DNA of 58,989 nt, from IMG/VR virus record IMGVR_UViG_3300046777_001542, positions 1 to 58,989 of that record, one strand, 5' to 3'. Origin of the DNA: a virus. Taxonomy: Duplodnaviria; Caudoviricetes. The translations under genes were made by a program, and so were the position numbers. The first letter of the stretch is position 1. The number at the start of each line of letters is the position of its first letter. The notes under the pieces were generated by a model that saw only the letters and a program-made list of their open reading frames with translations, ran no database searches and was not told the origin of the DNA. This document shows, piece after piece, positions 19,912 to 43,112 of the stretch.

Positions 19912-20982
19912 TTAAGAAGCAACCTTAACGTTCTTTACAACAACCCAAGCGTCTGCCTGCTCGATTTGAACGCCAACACGAGTATACATTGTGTACTCGA
20001 TTGAGTCCTTACGTGGCCAGAAGAATCGGTAAACTGTAACGTCACGCTTGATACCAATAACTACGTTATTTGGGAATGTCAAGTGGATATCACCGTGTGA
20101 ACCTGATGCTCCTGAGTAAGAGCCTGTCTGAATTTCTGGAAGAAGTGGAACTTCAACGATTGGAATACCAAATGCGTATGGAGCTACATATCCTGCAGGA
20201 CCAGAAACTGGTGCAACCTCACCACGGATGATGCCTGAAGCAATGTCCTGTGGGTTAACGTTCTGGATATTCTGTGATGTTGAGTATAAGTAATCCTGGA
20301 TCAAGTTTGAACCTGATAGGAAGCGGAGGTCTGTACGACGCTGCTTGTACTTACGTGGAAGAGCCTTAAGAGCTGAGTTAAATACAGCACGGGAGATGTT
20401 TGCTCCTGCTGCATCAACAACGTGACCGTTAGCCTTTGCCTTCTTAACTACACCGTCAAATGACTTATAAAGTGCATCTGATGTCTTTGTGGTATCACCA
20501 TTAAGGAGCAAGTCCTCAATGTCGTTACCTGCCTGTGTTGCCATCATTCTGGCAATGTGATCTTCGAGATCAGCACCTTCAATGTTGTCTTCTAGAGACT
20601 CAGTTGAAAGCTCCCAATCTAAACGAAGTTTCTTTGTTGTTAGAGAGATCTTTGAGAATGTCACTGGTGAGTTCTCACCTGTGTTCTCTGCTTCAGTTGC
20701 AAGACGAACAAGCTTCTCACCGACTGACATGCGGTCAATCTCTGTTGTGTCAGACTTCATTCGGACCGTTCTTGCAACCTTACCAATTACGGTAGCGTCG
20801 AACATATAATCTAAAAATCTTGCTGACTGCTCTGGGTTAAGAACACCACCGTTGCCATTTTCTGATGCAACGTGATCTCCTGTACCACCTGTTGCAGATG
20901 CGAAAGTACCGTTGACGGCCTGTGGGCCACCAGCAATAGTTGTACCTTCAGCTGCTGCTTTTGCTAATAATTCATTACTCAT
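19912..20982 (-). CDS. Major capsid protein (HK97 fold)
   Basis: GGVLNPEQSARF, ELSTESLEDNIEG, DIEDLLLNGD; follows the protease gene; strongly biased codons. Confidence 0.92.
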   Translation of the reverse strand: MSNELLAKAAAEGTTIAGGPQAVNGTFASATGGTGDHVASENGNGGVLNPEQSARFLDYMFDATVIGKVARTVRMKSDTTEIDRMSVGEKLVRLATEAENTGENSPVTFSKISLTTKKLRLDWELSTESLEDNIEGADLEDHIARMMATQAGNDIEDLLLNGDTTKTSDALYKSFDGVVKKAKANGHVVDAAGANISRAVFNSALKALPRKYKQRRTDLRFLSGSNLIQDYLYSTSQNIQNVNPQDIASGIIRGEVAPVSGPAGYVAPYAFGIPIVEVPLLPEIQTGSYSGASGSHGDIHLTFPNNVVIGIKRDVTVYRFFWPRKDSIEYTMYTRVGVQIEQADAWVVVKNVKVAS

Positions 20983-20999
20983 TTATTTCACCTACCTTT

Positions 21000-22313
21000 T
21001 TAGTTAAAGATTTCATTTACGGAACCGAGGAAAGAACCGTTCCATTTTGATTTAGATTTTGTTACTACTTCAGACCCGCCAAGGTCAGAAGACTTCTTAA
21101 TTGCTGTTTCGCCTTCTACGGCATCTACACGCTTCTGGACGCCATCAATGGTGCCCTTTATTTCTGTTACTGCTGCGCTAAGTGCGCTGTGCTTCTCTGC
21201 TAACTCTGAAATTCTAACATCGACATTCTTGCTGAATGCTTCGACAGATTCTTTGATCTGTGAAACTTGTGCAGCATTTGCCTCCGTAGCCTTTGAAAGT
21301 GTGTCCGAGAAAAAGCCCTTTAGGTCGCCCAACATTTTTGCAAAATCAGGTGTATCAACCTCTGCTGTGGCTGCTTCTTCAACGGAGTCGGCAGGAGCGT
21401 CTACTACTGCAGCTTCTGCTACAGGAGCATCTTCTACAACAGTTTCTGCAACAGCTTCAACAGCTGGTGCTTCTTCTAGTACGTCTACAGATTTTTCAAT
21501 TACTGTCTCATTTTGTACGTCTGACACTTCATTACCTCCTTCTACGTTTGCCTGTTTTGCGATTTGAGTTTCAGGCAACGCTAATCTTGTCTTCTTGAAT
21601 GAAGCAAGAATCTTATCTATTTCTTTTGCTTTGTTTATATCTGATGACTCTACCCAGCCAATTAATGTTGCTGGCTTTCCAGATACTGGTGAGTCAAATG
21701 TTTTTTCTGTTGATATAAATACAGAATCACTTTCTTCACAATAAAAAATATTCTCAGCAACTACTTCTGTTGCTAAACCTTTGTAAACCATCTTGCCACC
21801 AACCTTTTCAATAGAAAAGATGTTGCATAGTTCGTTTGCTGGTGAGTCAACAATTGATAGCTCAATAAGATCATAGTCTTTAATAAATCTTACCTGTTCT
21901 CCTGTTGCTTTGTTAATCTCATTATCTGATTCATTAATTCTTCCGCCAATTGAAAAACCAGAAAGAGTGCCATCAAGAACTTTTTCCCAAGTATCCTGTG
22001 CACCCTTTGAAATATATGAAGTTACATAAACTCCATTGTAAAATGTTTGTGACTTTTGATCGTAGTATGTCTCTGGCTTAAAACCAATAACCTTGCCAAC
22101 TGCAATTGATTGATGCATCTCTCTAAGATTTCCACGGAAATTTTCAAATGCTTTCATGCTTGCTTCTGCAGTGACTACATCGCCTGTCTGGTCAATGTTG
22201 TCCAATGTAGCAAAACCAGAAACAGTTCTCTGTTCACGGTTTACTTTTGTAAATGGTACTGAGAGATGGAGTTTTTCTCCATCACTGGACCAATGAGACT
22301 TTTCGATAATCAT
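21000..22313 (-). CDS. Prohead protease with C-terminal scaffold region
   Basis: VSGFAT...D..GD, LREMH, LSGFSIGG, ELSIVDSPAN (HK97-type protease), then an acidic/coiled-coil tail. Likely start is ATG at 22313, 7 nt after TAAAAT. Confidence 0.9.
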   Translation of the reverse strand: MIIEKSHWSSDGEKLHLSVPFTKVNREQRTVSGFATLDNIDQTGDVVTAEASMKAFENFRGNLREMHQSIAVGKVIGFKPETYYDQKSQTFYNGVYVTSYISKGAQDTWEKVLDGTLSGFSIGGRINESDNEINKATGEQVRFIKDYDLIELSIVDSPANELCNIFSIEKVGGKMVYKGLATEVVAENIFYCEESDSVFISTEKTFDSPVSGKPATLIGWVESSDINKAKEIDKILASFKKTRLALPETQIAKQANVEGGNEVSDVQNETVIEKSVDVLEEAPAVEAVAETVVEDAPVAEAAVVDAPADSVEEAATAEVDTPDFAKMLGDLKGFFSDTLSKATEANAAQVSQIKESVEAFSKNVDVRISELAEKHSALSAAVTEIKGTIDGVQKRVDAVEGETAIKKSSDLGGSEVVTKSKSKWNGSFLGSVNEIFN

Positions 22314-22366
22314 ATGCTTAATTTTATATGTATCTATATCAAAAGGCAAATAGCAGTTGAGTAAAG

Positions 22367-23953
22367 TTATTTGACTTTTGGACCATCGCCTTTGGCATTT
22401 CTACCCTCCCCATTTTTATCTGGGGCATTCTTGGCACGTTCTTGGTCTCTAGTTTTATTACCAGTAGATTTAGCTCTCTGGTCTGCCTCTTGCTGTGGCT
22501 TTAATTCTATGACTTCGTCTCCTCCGTCTAGCGGGATCATACCCTTTCTAATTCTAACTTCGTTAGGGGTAAGCACCTGCATGCGTAGGTAAATTTCATC
22601 AATTTGGCTCTGTGAGATTTCGTCAGTAAGACTCAACTCGTTAAATTTAATTACTAGCGCATCTGTCTTTTCTTCAATAATTGCATTAATCTTTTTCTCA
22701 AGTTTCATTTGCGCTGGGCGACAGACCTGCTCTTTAAATGTCTTGTCTGCATCACGAGCAACAGCTAAATTAACTCCTGGAGGGGTACCAATTTTATTAA
22801 TTGGAACACGATGTGCCATTAATATTTCGTCTCTATTTGTTTCACGATATACATTAAATGAAGACTCTTGGGCTCCCGCCTCAATTGGTTCCATCTTAAA
22901 TTCAGTCTTAGAATCTGGTGTATCTGCTGGCAGTGGGATATATAGGGATCTATGATTCTTGCCCTTTAATCCAACCTGGAAGAACTCAAGTAATTTTCTT
23001 TCTGACTCTGGTGATAACTTTGCACCCTTGACTGTAATAATATATCTTGGTACCGCCTTGTTTTCAAAGTAGTCAAGATTGTATCTTCCTGAAAATTCAT
23101 TTCCAGTTAATGCCATCTGTGCAGCAATGATGTCTGGTATGCCATAGTAGTTATTCATTGGGGTGTACTTCTTTAAATGAATAATTTCGTTTGGTCTATC
23201 TTCTGCACCTGCTATTGGGTTTGGAGTTTCTGTATCTCCAAAGTTTCTAAAGAACACCGCCTTGCCATATAGCAATTGCATAAAGCCATCACGCAGTCTA
23301 CGAACACGCATTGTTTTTGACGGGATATGACCAATGTAACCAATATTTCCAGCTGTGGTTCTTCCAATTTCAATATAGCCATTACCAGTTGCCTCTAGGT
23401 CTGTATACACCTTAATTAAAGTCTCTGTAAATGTGTCTTCATCGTTAGTAGAATCAAGCCAGTCTTGTAGATCTTGCTTTAGTTTATTTATCTTTCTTCT
23501 TGCTCTTTCAAGCTGTTTCTCATCTGTAATCTCATCAATGGCGTCATTAGTTTTTCTTGTCTCCATAAAATTGTAGCCAAGACCAACAATGTTTGCAACC
23601 TTAGCATTAACTGCTGCGTAGTTGTATGTTGATATCTCATATACCTGTGATAAGTATTCTAAATTATATTGTGGCTGAATTAAGTCAAACATAGCATATC
23701 CGCTAATTGCTTGAGCCATTAAGTTCTGTTGTGTAGCCGCCCCATCTTGACCAGTAAACGATTTAGAAAAATCTCTATTTATTTTTCTTTTAAAGTTAGT
23801 GCCAAGACCTCTTACCTTTTTTAAGTCATCAATGCCTATTGCAAATGGATCAAAATGCTCTTTTTCTTTTTTAAATGAAAACCAATCAGCAGTATTTGAT
23901 ATATTAATTGTTGAAGAGTTATCGTCGCCATCTTCAATAAATTGTGCTGTCAT
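22367..23953 (-). CDS. Portal protein
   Basis: ATGNGYIEI, EIIHLK...YYGIPD, YFENKAVP, ILMAHRVP, LTPNEVR. Confidence 0.92.
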   Translation of the reverse strand: MTAQFIEDGDDNSSTINISNTADWFSFKKEKEHFDPFAIGIDDLKKVRGLGTNFKRKINRDFSKSFTGQDGAATQQNLMAQAISGYAMFDLIQPQYNLEYLSQVYEISTYNYAAVNAKVANIVGLGYNFMETRKTNDAIDEITDEKQLERARRKINKLKQDLQDWLDSTNDEDTFTETLIKVYTDLEATGNGYIEIGRTTAGNIGYIGHIPSKTMRVRRLRDGFMQLLYGKAVFFRNFGDTETPNPIAGAEDRPNEIIHLKKYTPMNNYYGIPDIIAAQMALTGNEFSGRYNLDYFENKAVPRYIITVKGAKLSPESERKLLEFFQVGLKGKNHRSLYIPLPADTPDSKTEFKMEPIEAGAQESSFNVYRETNRDEILMAHRVPINKIGTPPGVNLAVARDADKTFKEQVCRPAQMKLEKKINAIIEEKTDALVIKFNELSLTDEISQSQIDEIYLRMQVLTPNEVRIRKGMIPLDGGDEVIELKPQQEADQRAKSTGNKTRDQERAKNAPDKNGEGRNAKGDGPKVK

Positions 23954-27169: not shown

Positions 27170-27778
27170 TTACCAAAGCCAAAACCCTGGTGCCATGTAT
27201 TTATTTCCAGACTTAAGCTCATTTGATCCATGAAGATATGGCTCTGAAGATGGGAATATTGCTATACTACCAGCTTGTGGCTTTATAACTACATTTTGAT
27301 TACTAAACGAAAGCTCTCCACCTTCATAATTATCGTTAAGATATGCAACTATAGAATATCTAAGCTTAGTATTCCCATCATACTGATCTGCATGTTGACC
27401 AAGTGTCTGGCCAGGGTTATATTTTTTAATTCCAAACTCTTTATCTAAGTTTACATCTCCATCAACATTATTGTATAGCTTATACTGTGTAGCACAAAAA
27501 TGCATACTAGACCTAATGCTGTTTATTATGTATAGCTCTCTTGCACTTGGTAGCGCTCCTGCTTTTTCATAATCAGCAGTTATATATTTTTCTAAACCAT
27601 AAATATCTTCTGGTCTATTGCTGGCCTTCCACAGTCTCCATTTTGATATAAGATTTGTATTTATTGATTCATCATCTTCTGTTTCTTCAATAAATTTTAC
27701 TAGCTTCTCTGGCTCAGATATTGCATTTGTAAAATAAAATATATTAGGAGCTAGTTCTTGAAAATTATACATTGCCAT
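27170..27778 (-). CDS. 2OG-Fe(II) oxygenase, prolyl-4-hydroxylase-like (7th in operon)
   Basis: HAD...YLNDNYEGGEL...IFPS...HGS...GNKY. Confidence 0.9.
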   Translation of the reverse strand: MAMYNFQELAPNIFYFTNAISEPEKLVKFIEETEDDESINTNLISKWRLWKASNRPEDIYGLEKYITADYEKAGALPSARELYIINSIRSSMHFCATQYKLYNNVDGDVNLDKEFGIKKYNPGQTLGQHADQYDGNTKLRYSIVAYLNDNYEGGELSFSNQNVVIKPQAGSIAIFPSSEPYLHGSNELKSGNKYMAPGFWLW

Positions 27779-28472
27779 GATTATCCTTATTCATCCAAAA
27801 CCCAGGTACCATATACTTATGACCACTCTTTACTAGATGGGCTGTGTGATTATAAGGTGAGGATGAAGGGAATATTAATACGCTTCCAGCCTCTGGCTTT
27901 AAATAGAAAGTTACTCTATCTGTGTCTTTGCTTAATTCTAAATCTTGATGTGGTTTATCGATAGAATCCATTATACCGTCTTTAATTGTAAATGATATTT
28001 CTCCGCCTTCATAGTCATCGTTTAAATACATTACTAAAGAATACTTTAGTCTTGTATCTCCTTCTTGTTGATCATAATGACCACCCATTGTGGTTCCAGC
28101 TGAATATCTGTTTATACCTATTGATGTCTGTAATAAAACATCGTCTTCTATTCCTTTTTCTTTTGCATAGTCTTTACATACTGACTGTAATCCATTTAGT
28201 ATTGTTTCTATAATTGTCTTAGCTTTTTCATATTGGTCTGGAGAGGCATTTTTTAATTCTTCTAAAGAGTCCAATGCTAGATTCTTTTTATTTCCATAAA
28301 CATACATTAATCCGCTGCAAGCAGACCACTCATCCCACTTTGGAACAACTTTAACTATTGGGTCGTTATCGTCATAATCCTCAGTAGAATTTATAAGGTC
28401 AATAAATTCTTTTGGATTTTCTATTACATTCTTGTAATAGTATACATTTTCTTCTAGTTTTTCTCTATTCAT
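27765..28472 (-). CDS. 2OG-Fe(II) oxygenase, prolyl-4-hydroxylase-like (6th)
   Basis: HYD...YLNDDYEGGEI...IFPS...HTA...GHKY. Confidence 0.9.
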   Translation of the reverse strand: MNREKLEENVYYYKNVIENPKEFIDLINSTEDYDDNDPIVKVVPKWDEWSACSGLMYVYGNKKNLALDSLEELKNASPDQYEKAKTIIETILNGLQSVCKDYAKEKGIEDDVLLQTSIGINRYSAGTTMGGHYDQQEGDTRLKYSLVMYLNDDYEGGEISFTIKDGIMDSIDKPHQDLELSKDTDRVTFYLKPEAGSVLIFPSSSPYNHTAHLVKSGHKYMVPGFWMNKDNHGNV

Positions 28473-28481
28473 TATCTCTCC

Positions 28482-29078
28482 TTAGTGAACTATAGTTCCA
28501 TTTTGCCAAAAATGAGGTATAAATATTTTTCTCCCAGACTTTAATGCTAATGAACCGTGATAGTATGGTTCTTTTGAAGGGAACAATATTATGCTACCTG
28601 CTTTTGGCTTTATTTTAACGTCTTGCTTTCCAAAATAAATTTCTCCGCCTTCATAGTCATCGTTTAAATAAACTACAAAAGAATATTCTAATGTATTTTG
28701 ATCTTCGTTCCAATCTGTATGCTGGCCCATCTCTTCATTTTCACGATACTTATTTAAAACAAAAATTTTGCCTATGTTGATTTTATCTTCAATGCTATAT
28801 ATTTCAGCATATTTTTCGGCACATGCATACATAGCATCTATAATTTCCATAATAATTTCTTCTGACTCTGGGTCTATTGGATTATTTTTATCTTCTTTTA
28901 CTCCAACAAACTTTCTTTCTCCGTAAACATATTTTTGTTCAGAGTTTGCTTCCCATGGCAGCCATGCTGATATAAATGAATTATCCACGCTGTCTATCTT
29001 AGAAAGCCATTCTTTTGGATTCTGAATAGCATCTTCAAAGTAAACTATTTTGTCGTATACTATTTCATGCTTCATCAT
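28482..29078 (-). CDS. 2OG-Fe(II) oxygenase, prolyl-4-hydroxylase-like (5th)
   Basis: HTD...YLNDDYEGGEI...LFPS...HGS...GRKI. Confidence 0.9.
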   Translation of the reverse strand: MMKHEIVYDKIVYFEDAIQNPKEWLSKIDSVDNSFISAWLPWEANSEQKYVYGERKFVGVKEDKNNPIDPESEEIIMEIIDAMYACAEKYAEIYSIEDKINIGKIFVLNKYRENEEMGQHTDWNEDQNTLEYSFVVYLNDDYEGGEIYFGKQDVKIKPKAGSIILFPSKEPYYHGSLALKSGRKIFIPHFWQNGTIVH

Positions 29079-29823
29079 TCATATATTCTTTTGCTGGTTT
29101 ACTTGAAACTCCTGGACCAGGCAAAAGCCTTTCTCCTCTTTCTCTCATTTTTGCCCACTCTTCTGCATCTTTTGCCTGCTGGACTCTTGCTTCAGAAATT
29201 TCTGTTTCCCATCTTGCTCTAGTTTCATCTGAGTACTCGACTTCTTCAAAATCCCAAAACGAACCAATTGTGTATCTAGTTCCTTTTTCTATAACAAGAA
29301 CTTCGTGTATATTATGGTGTCCTCCTTCAAAGGCTGCTAGCAGGCCTTTTCTAGGTTTAATTCTTATATCATGATCTCTAAAGTTTAATTCTCCACCTTC
29401 AAAATCATCATTTAAATAAAGGAAGGTTGCCATCTTACTTCTTTCAAAAGCATTGTAGTCTGGAGTATCCAGTGGGCTATTGTCTGAGTGGAATCCAGCA
29501 AATGCGCCTTCAATCCACTTTTGTGCATGGTAGCTAACCTTTCTAACTGGCTTGCCTCTGGTATCTGCTGTTGCTTCCTGTATTCCCTTTTCTAACTCTG
29601 CAAAAAAGTTTTCTGGTAGTCCAAATTCAAGCATGTCGCTATCTTCTGGGAGGTTTGATGAAAATGACTCATAAAAAGAAATGGGTCCCCAAGACAGTGT
29701 ACCTTTTTCTGTTGAGTGCTCCCAATACTTTAATATTGCGTCACAATGTTCTGGTGATATAAAATTTTCATATATAACTATATCATTTTTTAAAACTTTT
29801 TTACCATCAAGATTATACATCAT
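29065..29823 (-). CDS. 2OG-Fe(II) oxygenase, prolyl-4-hydroxylase-like (4th)
   Basis: HSD...YLNDDFEGGEL...HEV...GTRY. Confidence 0.9.
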   Translation of the reverse strand: MMYNLDGKKVLKNDIVIYENFISPEHCDAILKYWEHSTEKGTLSWGPISFYESFSSNLPEDSDMLEFGLPENFFAELEKGIQEATADTRGKPVRKVSYHAQKWIEGAFAGFHSDNSPLDTPDYNAFERSKMATFLYLNDDFEGGELNFRDHDIRIKPRKGLLAAFEGGHHNIHEVLVIEKGTRYTIGSFWDFEEVEYSDETRARWETEISEARVQQAKDAEEWAKMRERGERLLPGPGVSSKPAKEYMNDEA

Positions 29824-30658
29824 TTAGTCTTCTCGCTTTCGATACTGTTTCTCTAGTTATCTGTTGATAAACTCCATTTGCTCTGTCCCGCTTCCATCTT
29901 TCTCTTTCCATCTGTGCCCATATTTCTTCTCCATAAAGTTGCTGATTTTTGATCCATTCTTCAGTACCCTCATTAAATCTGAGCATATTATTTCTTATAA
30001 AGTATTTTGGCGAACCAATAATTTTTCTAACTCCGTGATGATATAGCTCATCCCCTTCTGTTAAAAATCCAGGATCTCCCGCTGGGAAAACAATTACGTC
30101 TCCAGCTTTTGGCTTGTAATAAAATAATTTATCGTTTATATAAAAATCAATTCCGCCACCTTCGTAATCATCATTAAGATACATTGTTACAGTTACAGAA
30201 AAATTATATCCTCTAGCATCTTTTTTTTCTACTTGGTAGTCTGTATGGTAATGCATTGCAAGGTCTAATGCTACTTCAGTCTCTGGGTTATACTTACATA
30301 TTGAAGGCCCCATTTTTTGCCATTTATTTTTTGTTTTACCGTCAACTGTATCTACAAATGTATCAAATGAATATTCAACATTATGTTTTTCAAAATAATG
30401 ATCAACTACTGTAAAAAATACTCTTTCTATTTCTTCTAGGGCTTCTTTTTCTTTTATAACTCTTGGAGTATCTTCGGCATCACGAATAAAGTTGTCTGCC
30501 TCTAAACCAAATGTATACCAATCCTCCCAAGGAAAGATCATTGATCCTTCAGGATTTTTTTCTGACTCTACTATTACATTTAGAAAAGAGTCTAGGTCTT
30601 TAAATATATTGCTATATACAAAAACTTTTGGATAAACTTCTCTATATTCTATTTCCAT
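29813..30658 (-). CDS. 2OG-Fe(II) oxygenase, prolyl-4-hydroxylase-like (3rd)
   Basis: HTD...YLNDDYEGGGI...HGV...PKY. Confidence 0.9.
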   Translation of the reverse strand: MEIEYREVYPKVFVYSNIFKDLDSFLNVIVESEKNPEGSMIFPWEDWYTFGLEADNFIRDAEDTPRVIKEKEALEEIERVFFTVVDHYFEKHNVEYSFDTFVDTVDGKTKNKWQKMGPSICKYNPETEVALDLAMHYHTDYQVEKKDARGYNFSVTVTMYLNDDYEGGGIDFYINDKLFYYKPKAGDVIVFPAGDPGFLTEGDELYHHGVRKIIGSPKYFIRNNMLRFNEGTEEWIKNQQLYGEEIWAQMERERWKRDRANGVYQQITRETVSKARRLNDV

Positions 30659-40083: not shown

Positions 40084-40308
40084 CTACCACTTTTTTAGTG
40101 GACATTCCGCATATTTTATTTTTGTTTTAGCTTTCATTACACAGCCACACTCTTTGCATTGTGTTGTAAGACTTATGAATCTTGGACACTCTTTGCATAT
40201 AGACAGTTTTGCAGCCGCTTCTTCATCAGAGACATATTCGGTTCTAGGATTTAATATATCCCATGGCCTTGTGTCTCCAAGCTTTTCTTTGTAGCTTTCC
40301 CATGTCAT
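40084..40308 (-). CDS. Small Cys-rich protein (DUF6171-like, probably metal-binding)
   Basis: CKEC...CKECGC...K......CPLKKW; coupled (TAATG) to the Hint-domain gene. Confidence 0.7.
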   Translation of the reverse strand: MTWESYKEKLGDTRPWDILNPRTEYVSDEEAAAKLSICKECPRFISLTTQCKECGCVMKAKTKIKYAECPLKKW

Positions 40309-43112
40309 TATGTAACATTTGCCTTTACGTTGTGAGTTAACATATTCTCTGTGAATAGTACATCTTGGTCTTCTGTATCAAATAGGTATACTGTTGCTGC
40401 TTCTTCAATTGTATCCTTTTGAATAACATCTACCCATGCTAGATTTTCAACAGAATCTCCAGTTCTCTTAAGCACCTTCCATCCAATTTGAATATCTCCA
40501 GCTACAGCAAATCTCTTTGTAGATCCATCATCAACCAAAATGTGGTGTTCTGATGTGTACTTATCTCCATTTATAACAATTAGTGTAGAAACATTTCTCA
40601 TGGCTCTGGCTGATGTCACAACTGTATTTAGCATTTCAACTGGAGTTAATGTATCTGCGCTCCATGCGTCTAGTGTGTATGCAGTTTCATCTGTAGTTAG
40701 CTCATTAAATCTTATTGAGTGTACTATATCTCCAACTATAATTTCTTCCGCTGGTACTGGACCATTAGGTGTAGATATTAATGTTGAAGCTGCTATACAG
40801 CCTCCGCCACCGCCACTAGCAAAGTATGGCGGGAAGAATGGTGGGAAGTGAGGTGGTGTAAACGCAAAGTATGGGTATCCGCTAAAGTATGGCGGGAAGA
40901 ATGGTGGGAAGTGAGGTGGGAAGAATGGTGGGAAGTGAGGTGGGAAGAATGGCGGGAAGAATGGTGGGAAGTGAGGTGGGAAGAATGGCGGGAAGAATGG
41001 TGGGAAGTGAGGTGGTGTAAACGCAACTGTTGCACATGCAGCATTAGCGGCGGCGGCAAGAGCGCCAGCTTCAGTTTCTCTATAAACTGTATATGTAGAT
41101 GTTCTTGAACCAGTAGAGAATGTATCTGTTGGCATTGTTGATGCAGTAAATGGGCCAGTTACTTGTGGTGAAGTAACATAATATCCATTTTGAACATCGC
41201 ATACAGAATATCCTCTATAATATGTGACTGTTGTTGGTTCAACATATCCACAATCTGCTGAATTCCATGTCCAATAAATTGTTGACTGATAAACTTTATC
41301 GCCATAGGTTGGTGATCCAGTACAATCTCTATAAATACCTTGAGCAATTCCATTTAAATAATATTCTTCTCTGTATCCATAAATTGGTCTTGACCAAGGC
41401 ATTTTTGTTGTTCCAGTACAATCATATCCATAATCAGTTCCGTTGTTATATTGAGTACATGCACCCCAAGTTGCTACTGGGGCTGGTGCTGAAGGATATA
41501 CGGTATTAGATGTTACTGGTCCTGCTGATCCAGCACTATTGCTTGCAGTAACTTTACATCTTAATCCTCTTCCATCTGCCCAAGAAGCAGTTGTTATAGA
41601 TGAATCACTACCAACATTTATCCAAACTGATCCTTGATCGTTATATTCCCAGTTATATGAGTAAGATGTAGGATTATTATTCCATGTTCCAACACTTGAA
41701 ACAGACCAACTTCTTTCAGATCCTGAAATTACAGGGTATCCTCCAGCCCATGTTGGTGCAATAACTGTAGGCGGCTTAACAACTGATTGAGCTGAGTTGC
41801 TGCTTGCTACTGGTGTGGTTAATGTTAAATCAGTTAATAAAAGCTGAACTGTACATGATATTGCTTTATTATCATAAGCGGTTGTATCGTAAAGATTAAT
41901 TGTATCTGATTCATATATGAATATATCGTCTATTGGTGAACCGTCTGCAAACCATTCATATATATATGAATATATTGATGAAGTATTTGTCCATGTTCCT
42001 GTTGTTGCAGAGAATGATCTGCCATCAGATGTTGATACTGATGGAGCTACTGTATTTACTGGCTTTGCCACAGCTGGATATGTAATTGTAAGTCCTGGTG
42101 TTGAGCTCCAAGATGTTTCATCAAATCTAGGTGCTGTTCCATTAACAGTTATAGTAAATGAACCATATGTTGTTCCGCCAATTCCAATTTGGTCAATATC
42201 ATAAGATGTTTGAGTTGGGCTATTTAATGTTGAGCTTGCATATACTTCTGATCCATTATATATTATCCATGATGTAGGCTGTATTAGGTTTAATGACCAA
42301 CTTAATCTTCCTCCCCAAGAGAAAGATTCCATAGTTGTTGTAACACTTGGCTTATTTGGCTTTAGGTCATTAACTGATCCGTTTTTACCATAACCAGTTA
42401 CTGTCATTCCGCTTACATTTGATGTATTTAATGGATTAAGCAATAATCCAATAGTCCCATCAGCATTGCCAGTATCAAATGTATATGTATTGACATCTCC
42501 TAAACGGTTTACTTCAGTAAATTGAACTTCTGGTCCTTGATATTGTAGGTAAAAATCATTTGCTCCAACTGGCTTAACCCAATCCAGTTTGACAACACCG
42601 TTTTCTACAACTGTAACAGTTAAGCTTGTTAATTTTTGTGGGGCTATAAGAGGAGTGGCTAATGTATAAACTGGCTCTTTAGTATCTCCATATTGATTTG
42701 TTGCAGTAACTTTACATCTTACAACATATCCAACATATTTAAGTGTTTTATTTGAATCCCACTCATCTTCATTTAAGAATAATGAATTTTCTGTCTTGCC
42801 AGGAATATCGGACCAGCTTAATGTAGAGAAAGAATGTGGAGCTTTTTGCCATTGATATTTATATGATGTCGGACTATTTTCCCATGTTCCAGTTGAAACA
42901 GATATAGTTTCCTGAGCTCCATACAAATAGTTGTCTGGCTGTAAAGATATAGTTGGAAGAACTGTATTCTTAGGAGTTAAATCATTTACTGGCTTCCAGG
43001 CAGTGCCATCCCAAATAAATACAGCCTTACTATCCTTCCATGTAGTACCGTCATATACCTTGATCTTTTTAAACGGATTCCATGAGGAATTGTTCCAAAT
43101 ATTTAGTGGCAT
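40308..43112 (-). CDS. Ig/FN3-repeat virion appendage protein with PPxF repeats and C-terminal Hint domain
   Basis: Three Ig-like repeats (GTW.N.PTSY.Y.W...C.VTA.N), a Cys-rich linker, about 14 PPxF units, then GGGGG and a Hint domain. Confidence 0.85.
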   Translation of the reverse strand: MPLNIWNNSSWNPFKKIKVYDGTTWKDSKAVFIWDGTAWKPVNDLTPKNTVLPTISLQPDNYLYGAQETISVSTGTWENSPTSYKYQWQKAPHSFSTLSWSDIPGKTENSLFLNEDEWDSNKTLKYVGYVVRCKVTATNQYGDTKEPVYTLATPLIAPQKLTSLTVTVVENGVVKLDWVKPVGANDFYLQYQGPEVQFTEVNRLGDVNTYTFDTGNADGTIGLLLNPLNTSNVSGMTVTGYGKNGSVNDLKPNKPSVTTTMESFSWGGRLSWSLNLIQPTSWIIYNGSEVYASSTLNSPTQTSYDIDQIGIGGTTYGSFTITVNGTAPRFDETSWSSTPGLTITYPAVAKPVNTVAPSVSTSDGRSFSATTGTWTNTSSIYSYIYEWFADGSPIDDIFIYESDTINLYDTTAYDNKAISCTVQLLLTDLTLTTPVASSNSAQSVVKPPTVIAPTWAGGYPVISGSERSWSVSSVGTWNNNPTSYSYNWEYNDQGSVWINVGSDSSITTASWADGRGLRCKVTASNSAGSAGPVTSNTVYPSAPAPVATWGACTQYNNGTDYGYDCTGTTKMPWSRPIYGYREEYYLNGIAQGIYRDCTGSPTYGDKVYQSTIYWTWNSADCGYVEPTTVTYYRGYSVCDVQNGYYVTSPQVTGPFTASTMPTDTFSTGSRTSTYTVYRETEAGALAAAANAACATVAFTPPHFPPFFPPFFPPHFPPFFPPFFPPHFPPFFPPHFPPFFPPYFSGYPYFAFTPPHFPPFFPPYFASGGGGGCIAASTLISTPNGPVPAEEIIVGDIVHSIRFNELTTDETAYTLDAWSADTLTPVEMLNTVVTSARAMRNVSTLIVINGDKYTSEHHILVDDGSTKRFAVAGDIQIGWKVLKRTGDSVENLAWVDVIQKDTIEEAATVYLFDTEDQDVLFTENMLTHNVKANVT
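40329..40799 (-). other. Hint (intein-like/BIL) auto-processing domain
   Basis: Block A CIAASTLISTPNG, block B TSEH, block F VYLFDTE, block G HN followed by Val; no endonuclease. Confidence 0.88.
40820..41025 (-). repeat. Second 12-bp tandem repeat array encoding PP(H/F/Y)F
   Basis: GGTGGGAAGAAT / GGTGGGAAGTGA units; shares the [15 protein letters not shown] cassette with the 33990-34330 array. Confidence 0.95.

Follow-up and report, generated by a model that had tools for sequence, protein, structure and literature searches.

We analysed a 58,989 nt stretch of viral DNA (Duplodnaviria; Caudoviricetes), positions 1 to 58,989 of the IMG/VR record IMGVR_UViG_3300046777_001542 and referred to here as the window, with regard to a gene for a 934-amino-acid (aa) fibre-like protein whose C-terminus combines an array of PPxF repeats, a penta-glycine linker and a domain of the Hint superfamily. 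Our current working hypothesis is that this domain, which resembles the type A bacterial intein-like (BIL) domains, is an optional module that caps the C-terminus of a phage fibre or appendage protein and would remove itself by cleavage between G771 and C772; on the strength of the sequence comparisons and structure models set out below we put the probability of this at about 0.6. What the comparisons show directly is the fold of the domain, its intact motifs, its terminal position, the purifying selection acting on it and its dispensability in related phages.

The C-terminus of the protein reads ...AFT(PPxF)11 SGYPYFAFT(PPxF)3 AS GGGGG, then CIAASTLISTPNG...TSEHH...VYLFDTEDQDVLFTENMLTHN, and closes with VKANVT and the stop codon. 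An earlier note on this DNA, made from the letters alone, had described the same succession of PPxF array, GGGGG/Cys junction (the slash marking the predicted cleavage site), Hint domain and VKANVT, and each of these elements is found in the translated open reading frame (ORF) at the position given for it (Table 1).

Relatives of the C-terminal region are numerous. A phmmer search with aa 768–934 against 1.84 billion cluster representatives returned 238 proteins with E≤1e-3, including 26 with E≤1e-10 and eight with E≤1e-30. The top match in the PDB of a profile built from 58 family members was 2LWY, a 'bacterial intein-like domain' (E 1.9e-13); the Tetrahymena BIL2 structures 6Y75 and 6TMM (E 2.4e-9) and many inteins (best about 1e-8) were also matched, and the profile alignment sets block B of the family opposite TFDH of 2LWY and the end of the family opposite its terminal VHN. 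The AlphaFold2 (AF2) model of the domain, computed with the 58-member alignment, has a mean predicted local distance difference test score (pLDDT) of 94.0 and a predicted template modelling score (pTM) of 0.89. When this model was compared with the PDB by Foldseek, 52 matches had E≤1e-3, and among the matches listed all were BIL, intein or Hedgehog domains, with a probability of 1.00. Here too 2LWY came first (E 3.3e-7; template modelling scores 0.66/0.79; identity 24 %), followed by BIL2 6Y75, DnaB mini-inteins and the Hedgehog structures 1AT0 and 6TYY (Hedgehog E about 1e-5), so that 2LWY is the best match by profile and by structure, the structural margin over inteins and Hedgehog being small. 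The query alone scores above the cut-off of no Pfam model; Hint_2 (PF13403) is matched at E 0.001 with 19.9 bits, below the cut-off of 28.4, over only the first ~27 residues of the domain. When the 58 members were searched singly, they matched Intein_splicing (27), PT-HINT (8), Hint_2 (7), Hom_end_hint (5) and Hint (4). Taken together, sequence profile and modelled fold confirm C772–N928 as a Hint-superfamily domain, far beyond chance. The earlier note had staked its reading on an intact Hint domain with C1, TxxH, block F and terminal HN, and had named a predicted structure other than a Hint fold as the outcome that would speak against it; the fold, the profile and the conservation described next all bear it out. 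Beyond the query locus no second Hint copy was found in the record, which is ~55 % complete (CheckV).

Conservation was assessed in an alignment of 135 homologues and the query (136 rows); after 17 N-terminally truncated fragments had been dropped from the junction counts, 119 homologues remained, mostly 25–55 % identical. The nucleophile column (Cys772) is occupied by Cys in 88, Ser in 30 and Tyr in one, that is, by Cys or Ser in 118/119, and the first position of block B by Ser (66) or Thr (53) throughout (119/119). The block B His column has His in 99 rows, Gln in 18 and Glu in two, the penultimate residue is His in 106, and the last residue of the domain is Asn in 96, Asp in 22 and Ser in one. 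Of the 88 rows with Cys1, 87 have a terminal Asn, and of the 30 with Ser1, 22 have a terminal Asp, a co-variation that is expected of a working active site. Gly is the commonest residue at −1 (46/119). At +1 the residue differs from row to row (K 25, S 17, V 15, L 13, I 11, and others), Cys being absent (0/119); Ser or Thr stands there in 22/119, just three of these following a terminal Asn. Lys or Arg is found at +1 or +2 in 79/119, with Lys at +2 in 49, and Lys163 is invariant across a close subfamily of eight sequences. As judged from the alignment, this pattern looks like that of a functioning N-terminal acyl-shift site.

The domain is both terminal and optional. Its end lies no more than 44 aa from the C-terminus of the protein in 134 of 139 full-length matches (a set that includes the query and its identical database copy), and the tails that follow the final Asn or Asp are 6 aa long at the median, with ≤20 aa in 109/119 and just one residue in 13/119. 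The nearest relative of the query (P0001) that also bears a Hint is P0003; the two are 83 % identical in the Hint domain (130/157), compared with 74 % for aa 1–540 and 67 % for aa 541–693, which argues that the Hint domain is under purifying selection; only two of the six tail residues are identical, which argues that the 'C-extein' is not. The PPxF array is 91 % identical in the same pair. Five syntenic contigs of 77–82 % identity (L003, L004, L005, L006 and L009) have a complete orthologue that lacks the Hint domain, the PPxF array being followed by a 9-residue tail and the protein ending ...PPRFGFRY; the last stretch of L006, likewise Hint-less, is a variant of that in the other four. These contigs share with the window the 647-aa fibre gene upstream and the small Cys-rich gene overlapping the stop codon, and in two others, L007 and L008, the gene is interrupted by the contig ends. 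The DNA is ~90 % identical to that of L005 and L003 as far as window position 40818 and again from 40302–40304, a 515-nt cassette (SGGGGG, Hint and stop) standing in place of 47 nt in the relatives. The guanine plus cytosine (GC) content of the Hint cassette (0.364) is close to that of the window (0.378), and recent foreign acquisition is thus unsupported by composition.

Variation at this end extends to the wider fibre family. The N-terminal signature MP[LF][NK]I[WF] is common to 35 of 65 homologues from the whole-protein search, and their C-termini differ: 13 were flagged as Hint-bearing, six end in RFGFRY, and the rest have Cys-rich or other endings. Two of the 13 are of the query type, ten belong to a second subtype and one (P0035) has a related ending, ...PWFITKDLLVIA; P0027 and P0034, with endings like those of the second subtype or P0035, fell below the length filter and so lie outside the 13. 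The second subtype starts FKGK/CLAPNALIL..., has Gln for the block B His and ends ...WFIV[ND]S..(A/V)IA, without His-Asn; by sequence it appears more like the type B BILs. Endings of this kind, for example ...WFIVNSTIAIA, were seen in P0014, P0016–P0020, P0022, P0024–P0027, P0034 and P0035. The variety of endings on a shared N-terminus marks the C-terminus of this fibre family as a swap site at which Hint is one frequent option, and we propose from these comparisons that the domain may move between fibre genes as a cassette.

The segment ahead of the domain is also distinctive. In the 40 residues before the nucleophile the mean fraction of Pro is 0.20 and that of Phe, Tyr and Trp together 0.17, as against 0.07 and 0.10 in the rest of the same proteins. 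If an aromatic-plus-proline array is taken to require both P+FYW≥0.4 and FYW≥0.15, such an array precedes the Hint domain in 47 of 114 proteins, but is seen in only 17 of 2754 control windows taken from other parts of these proteins. The earlier note had suggested surveying how often PPxF arrays precede Hint domains; in the strict sense they do so in 11/114, a count inflated by entries from the whole-protein search, as that search used a query that itself held the array; the count includes the query, and P0003, P0040, P0043 and partly P0041 entered through that search. The strict cases that came from the Hint-only search are P0041, P0089, P0090, P0094, P0113, P0140 and P0145. Poly-Gly runs of at least four residues adjoin the junction in 19/114, and an aromatic, poly-Gly or Pro-rich segment of any kind precedes the domain in 74/114. 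The array types (PPxF, FTPFG, FSPFG, PPGFFA, PPQYYAA) are unrelated to one another, and the pairing of array and Hint therefore looks convergent, not inherited.

We hypothesize that, once the protein has folded, Cys772 attacks the carbonyl of Gly771, and that an N-to-S acyl shift assisted by T853 and H856 yields a thioester, which would be resolved mostly by hydrolysis or thiolysis. The expected products are a mature protein of 771 residues, ending ...YFASGGGGG behind a disordered PPxF array, and a free Hint domain of 17 kDa; Asn928 may also cyclize, with loss of the 6-residue tail. While the protein is being made and assembled, the Hint domain could temporarily cap an aromatic-proline tail that is very hydrophobic. 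For characterized BIL-A domains mainly cleavage products are reported in the available text of PMC4031507. The earlier note had proposed, as one of two outcomes, that processing leaves the PPxF array at the C-terminus, matching a fibronectin type III (FN3) protein with such an array; that protein is indeed encoded in the window (Table 1), and the PPxF ends of the Hint-less orthologues, which share with it the ending PPRFGFRY, fit the idea.

Several points weigh against this hypothesis. Cleavage is a prediction for this protein and for every relative alike, and the available published texts on cultured phages that carry the domain are, supplements apart, silent on it. Since Hint-less orthologues exist, the fibre can do without the domain, and there is no necessity for a chaperone or cap role. 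If N-terminal cleavage alone matters, it is hard to see what the strongly conserved His-Asn at the C-terminal junction is for, and plain hydrolysis leaves the frequent Lys or Arg at +1 and +2 unexplained. Finally, the association with aromatic-proline arrays hints at a role more specific than simple shedding.

The most probable of the alternatives is self-ligation, in which the G771 thioester is captured by a defined nucleophile to give a covalently anchored or modified fibre end; we regard this as unlikely. The nucleophile might be the α-amine of VKANVT, freed after cyclization of Asn928, giving ...GGGGG-VKANVT by splicing in the style of BIL-A; the ε-amine of a Lys in another or the same virion protein, giving an isopeptide in the style of the Tetrahymena BUBL protein and its BIL2 domain; or a lipid or envelope amine, as in Hedgehog. 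Self-ligation would account for the retention of His-Asn although nothing is there to be released, and for the basic residues at +1 and +2 and the invariant Lys163, and the flexible Gly runs ahead of Cys1 would make an accessible acyl donor. There is also precedent, as far as the available portions of the two reports go: BIL-A domains ligate without a +1 nucleophile (PMC4031507), and BIL2, which is among the top structural matches here, joins Lys to a C-terminus by an isopeptide bond on different substrates (PMC8616854). For the second outcome proposed in the earlier note, in which the fibre becomes covalently joined to another protein, a lipid or a glycan, direct backing does not go beyond precedent (Hedgehog and BIL2). 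However, the acceptor is only hypothetical, the tails show no conservation past +2 and may consist of one residue, so that a spliced-on peptide would carry little information, the Hint-less orthologues do with a plain PPRFGFRY end, and BIL-A, in the same partial account, mostly cleaves and splices less efficiently (PMC4031507).

It is tempting to speculate further that the Hint domain provides the fibre tip with a reactive C-terminal thioester on a floppy, sticky and possibly prolyl-hydroxylated PPxF tail, from which the acyl group is passed to an amine or hydroxyl of a virion protein or of the host envelope. We hold this to be a long shot. If true, it would amount to covalent ligation by a virus particle, comparable to that of Hedgehog or BUBL, for assembly or irreversible attachment, and the array–Hint pairing would define a widespread and unrecognized 'covalent tail' system in aquatic phages.

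The domain might instead be a selfish or neutral passenger, a degenerate intein-like element that has settled at a harmless extreme C-terminus, keeps its catalysis for self-removal only and is of no benefit to the phage. Its presence or absence in contigs that are otherwise ~90 % identical in the flanks, the occurrence of at least two Hint subtypes and several non-Hint endings in one fibre family, and the presence of close Hint relatives on otherwise largely unrelated fibre proteins (see below) would all be accommodated. We nevertheless consider it improbable: no homing endonuclease and no obvious mobility mechanism are present, the GC content of the 515-nt cassette is host-like, the family is large and follows aromatic-proline, poly-Gly or Pro-rich segments in most proteins, and arrays of unrelated sequence types speak for functional coupling over hitch-hiking. 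Least probable of all is a retained, non-cleaving domain acting as a distal structural or receptor-binding knob, its chemistry triggered only by host contact: receptor-binding modules would usually be sought at the distal, most variable end of such a protein, and the jumbo-phage homologues described below carry structural annotations whose basis we have not seen, yet near-universal retention of the nucleophile and of the block B residues is not expected of a purely structural domain, and the higher identity of the Hint domain than of the regions upstream is the opposite of what a fast-evolving receptor-binding tip should show.

As to the class of Hint domain, the sequence has the features of a type A BIL, namely a terminal His-Asn, which belongs to the definition of BIL-A in the available text of PMC4031507, the lack of a +1 nucleophile, and a characterized BIL-A as its nearest solved relative. 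With the Clostridium thermocellum BIL-A (2LWY) it shares the Hint fold, Cys1, the block B TxxH, His-Asn, the lack of a +1 nucleophile and of an endonuclease, and a length of ~140–160 aa; it differs in its place at the very end of the protein, where just 6 aa follow it, in being carried by phage fibres and in following aromatic-proline or Gly-rich low-complexity arrays. The earlier note had concluded from the Val at +1 that canonical splicing is not possible. The residue is indeed Val, and canonical splicing would lack its nucleophile; to exclude splicing altogether is too strong, because type A BILs, according to that portion of the report, can ligate their flanks without one (PMC4031507).

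Other classes were considered and rejected. Class 1 mini-inteins (DnaB, gp41-1, NrdJ-1) share the fold and all four motif blocks of the phage domain, but a canonical intein is contradicted by Val in place of Cys, Ser or Thr at +1, by a dispensable and unconserved 'C-extein' of 6 aa where the Hint-less orthologues simply stop, and by a location outside any conserved site of an essential enzyme or other host protein. Hedgehog/Hog domains (1AT0, 6TYY) are similar in that a C-terminal Hint cleaves at a Gly/Cys junction and the N-terminal cargo is the functional product. A Hedgehog-type domain with sterol transfer was rejected as only the six residues VKANVT follow the Hint, leaving no sterol-recognition region, and sterol chemistry is not expected in a bacterial host; to our knowledge, Hedgehog domains also lack the intein-type terminal His-Asn that the phage domain has. 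A pretoxin HINT (PT-HINT, PF07591) was rejected in the absence of a downstream toxin domain and of a PT-HINT match to the query, eight of the 58 family members having such a match. The BIL2 domain of Tetrahymena BUBL (6Y75, 6TMM), which takes second or third place in the sequence and structure comparisons, has ubiquitin-like domains on both sides, unlike the phage protein, which has neither a C-terminal domain nor ubiquitin-like cargo; in the available part of its description BIL2 undergoes no canonical splicing, its N-terminal thioester leading to an isopeptide with Lys (PMC8616854).

Hint and BIL domains in general are known from inteins, Hedgehog proteins, bacterial surface proteins and polymorphic toxins. 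Among the papers within reach of our literature search, which was aimed at Hint or BIL domains in phages and in their structural proteins, none describes a Hint domain at the C-terminus of a phage fibre, or its pairing with arrays; matches for 'Hint domain' with 'tail fiber' concern inteins of terminase or ribonucleotide reductase, and databases merely label some members automatically as 'Hint domain containing protein'. A parallel is offered by the peptidase S74-type C-terminal intramolecular chaperones of phage tail spikes and fibres, which self-cleave. The proposed logic of a C-terminal fibre module that removes itself after its job is the same, as an analogy only: fold and chemistry are unrelated, and the phage protein has no Pfam or PHROG match to these chaperones. 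Self-cleavage, if true, would be a second and unrelated solution to the C-terminal maturation of phage fibres, and would bear on how receptor-binding proteins from metagenomes are annotated and expressed. If the domain ligates, virions would carry a natural device for joining proteins, and the compact (~160 aa) domain would be a candidate tool. Naturally occurring pairs of closely related phages with and without the Hint domain offer a ready-made comparison.

The domain is also found outside this fibre family. In five other viral contigs (L010–L014) Hint domains 48–59 % identical to that of the query are carried by proteins that are largely unrelated outside it, the sole other BLASTP match (E 0.009) being in a Cys-rich stretch; there the Hint is preceded by PT-rich or poly-Pro linkers and then GGGG/C or GG/C. 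The best structural matches in BFVD are proteins of uncultured Caudovirales named automatically 'Hint domain containing protein', 'PASTA_pknB domain containing protein' or 'Fibronectin type III'. Among cultured phages the domain was found only in jumbo myophages of Erwinia, Dickeya and Yersinia (49 records, 25–31 % identity), the Erwinia and Dickeya homologues being annotated as 'virion structural protein' or 'putative tail protein'. Erwinia phage Alexandra gp112 (L001:5014–6456) is collagen-like and ends ...TSG/CIVFG...VHNTDIVAKAEKK, and in the Dickeya phage AD1_108 protein (L015:2020–3459), a 'putative tail protein', the Hint likewise forms the C-terminus of a collagen-like protein. In these 'hairy' jumbo myophages the Hint family thus sits C-terminally on a collagen-like protein inside the tail-fibre cluster. 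The tail-hair proteins of AD1 are not known, according to the available text of its description (PMC6143709), which, its supplementary proteome tables not being covered, mentions neither Hint nor mass spectrometry. A poly-Hint architecture was seen in P0100, P0116 and P0193 (~1000 aa), in which several tandem Hint domains are joined by ...VHNKGGGGG/C... junctions.

Table 1. Positions in the window of the fibre gene, its parts and the neighbouring genes
Feature	Position	Strand	Residues	Basis or remark
Virion appendage (fibre-like) protein, P0001	40308..43112	minus	934 aa	ORF and translation; carries PPxF array and Hint
N-terminal ~45 aa (MPLNIW...)	42978..43112	minus	~45 aa	Conserved; six short β strands, period 7
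PPxF array, whole	40821..41015	minus	aa 700–764	14 units with SGYPYFAFT interruption
PPxF block 1	40884–41015	minus	aa 700–743	Eleven units
PPxF block 2	40821–40856	minus	aa 753–764	Three units, after SGYPYFAFT
GGGGG linker	40800..40814	minus	aa 767–771	G771 stands at −1 of the predicted scissile bond
Hint (type-A-BIL-like) domain	40329..40799	minus	C772–N928, 157 aa	Homology, fold, conservation
Cys772, block A	40797..40799	minus	C772	Predicted N-terminal nucleophile; conserved column
Block B, TSEH (TxxH)	40545..40556	minus	T853–H856	Aligns to TFDH of 2LWY
Block G, HN	40329..40334	minus	H927–N928	Aligns to terminal HN of 2LWY
Tail VKANVT ('C-extein')	40311..40328	minus	6 aa	+1 is Val; no nucleophile
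Cys-rich DUF6171-like protein	40084..40308	minus	74 aa	Start overlaps stop codon of fibre gene
FN3 protein	33974..34924	minus	316 aa	Pfam fn3, E 2.9e-12; longer PPxF array, ends APPRFGFRY
Nine tandem ORFs	27170..33470	minus	~200–280 aa each	Seven 2OG-FeII_Oxy_3, one DUF6065, one without match

The assignment of the 934-aa protein as fibre-like is supported by its neighbours, its ORF being flanked by fibre-like genes with PHROG tail-fibre matches. Nothing in Pfam, PHROGs or NCBIfam matched aa 1–700, and the matches of the protein to fn3 and Ig clusters in the ESM Atlas (score ≤0.85) are sub-threshold and serve as leads only. The full-length AF2 model, from an alignment of 34 sequences, has a mean pLDDT of 74; aa 50–540 are β-rich (pLDDT 80–94), the Hint part lies at about 80–89, and the short N-terminal strands from E4–6 to E39–41 are modelled at a modest 50–74. 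The conserved N-terminal segment is probably the end that attaches to the virion. In this single-chain model aa 694–769 have pLDDT <50 and no secondary structure, a weak indication that the PPxF array is disordered. The DNA of the array is itself repetitive, a 12-nt unit standing in tandem in 10.2 copies with a 36-nt superperiod (Tandem Repeats Finder score 199).

The FN3 protein and the 934-aa protein have near-identical PPxF arrays, down to the same SGYPYFAFT interruption; in the FN3 gene the 12-nt unit is repeated 18.8 times, and the GC content of the PPxF arrays (0.528) is far above that of the window. Through this shared repeat the two genes could recombine. The run of nine ORFs lies directly downstream of the FN3-PPxF gene; in it, all seven matches to 2OG-FeII_Oxy_3, a prolyl-hydroxylase-like 2-oxoglutarate–Fe(II) oxygenase family, are above the cut-off (E 4e-13 to 7e-7), with DUF6065 matched at E 1.5e-32. 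This proximity makes the proline-rich arrays plausible substrates and suggests, from gene content, that the proline-rich tails may be hydroxylated and perhaps glycosylated, a modification that, if true, would be unusual for phage structural proteins. The same order of Hint-bearing fibre gene, DUF6171 gene and 2OG-FeII_Oxy_3 gene recurs in L010 (4756–5367) and L012 (974–3185), the latter also having a PF11397 'GlcNAc' glycosyltransferase (E 5.9e-24) and DUF6065; such gene orders hint at possible hydroxyproline glycosylation of phage fibre linkers.

The 74-aa Cys-rich protein encoded after the fibre gene matches Pfam DUF6171 below the cut-off (E 2.3e-5; 25.1 bits, cut-off 27) and phrog_13558 at E 2.5e-16; it is 47 % identical to its L010 homologue (E 2e-24), which does pass the Pfam cut-off. 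A DUF6171-like gene of 66–103 aa directly follows the fibre gene, often overlapping its stop codon, in all ten complete loci (L003–L006 and L009–L014). As the Hint-less loci also hold this gene, its presence is tied to the fibre gene rather than to the Hint domain, and the encoded protein may be a fibre assembly factor.

The record itself is 59 kb long and viral, with tape-measure, capsid, protease and portal genes. Its portal, protease and major capsid module (19912–23953) has ~65 % nucleotide identity to Streptomyces siphophages (127 records) and Rhodococcus phages (6) of ~130 kb, which suggests an actinobacterial host despite the low GC content of the window.

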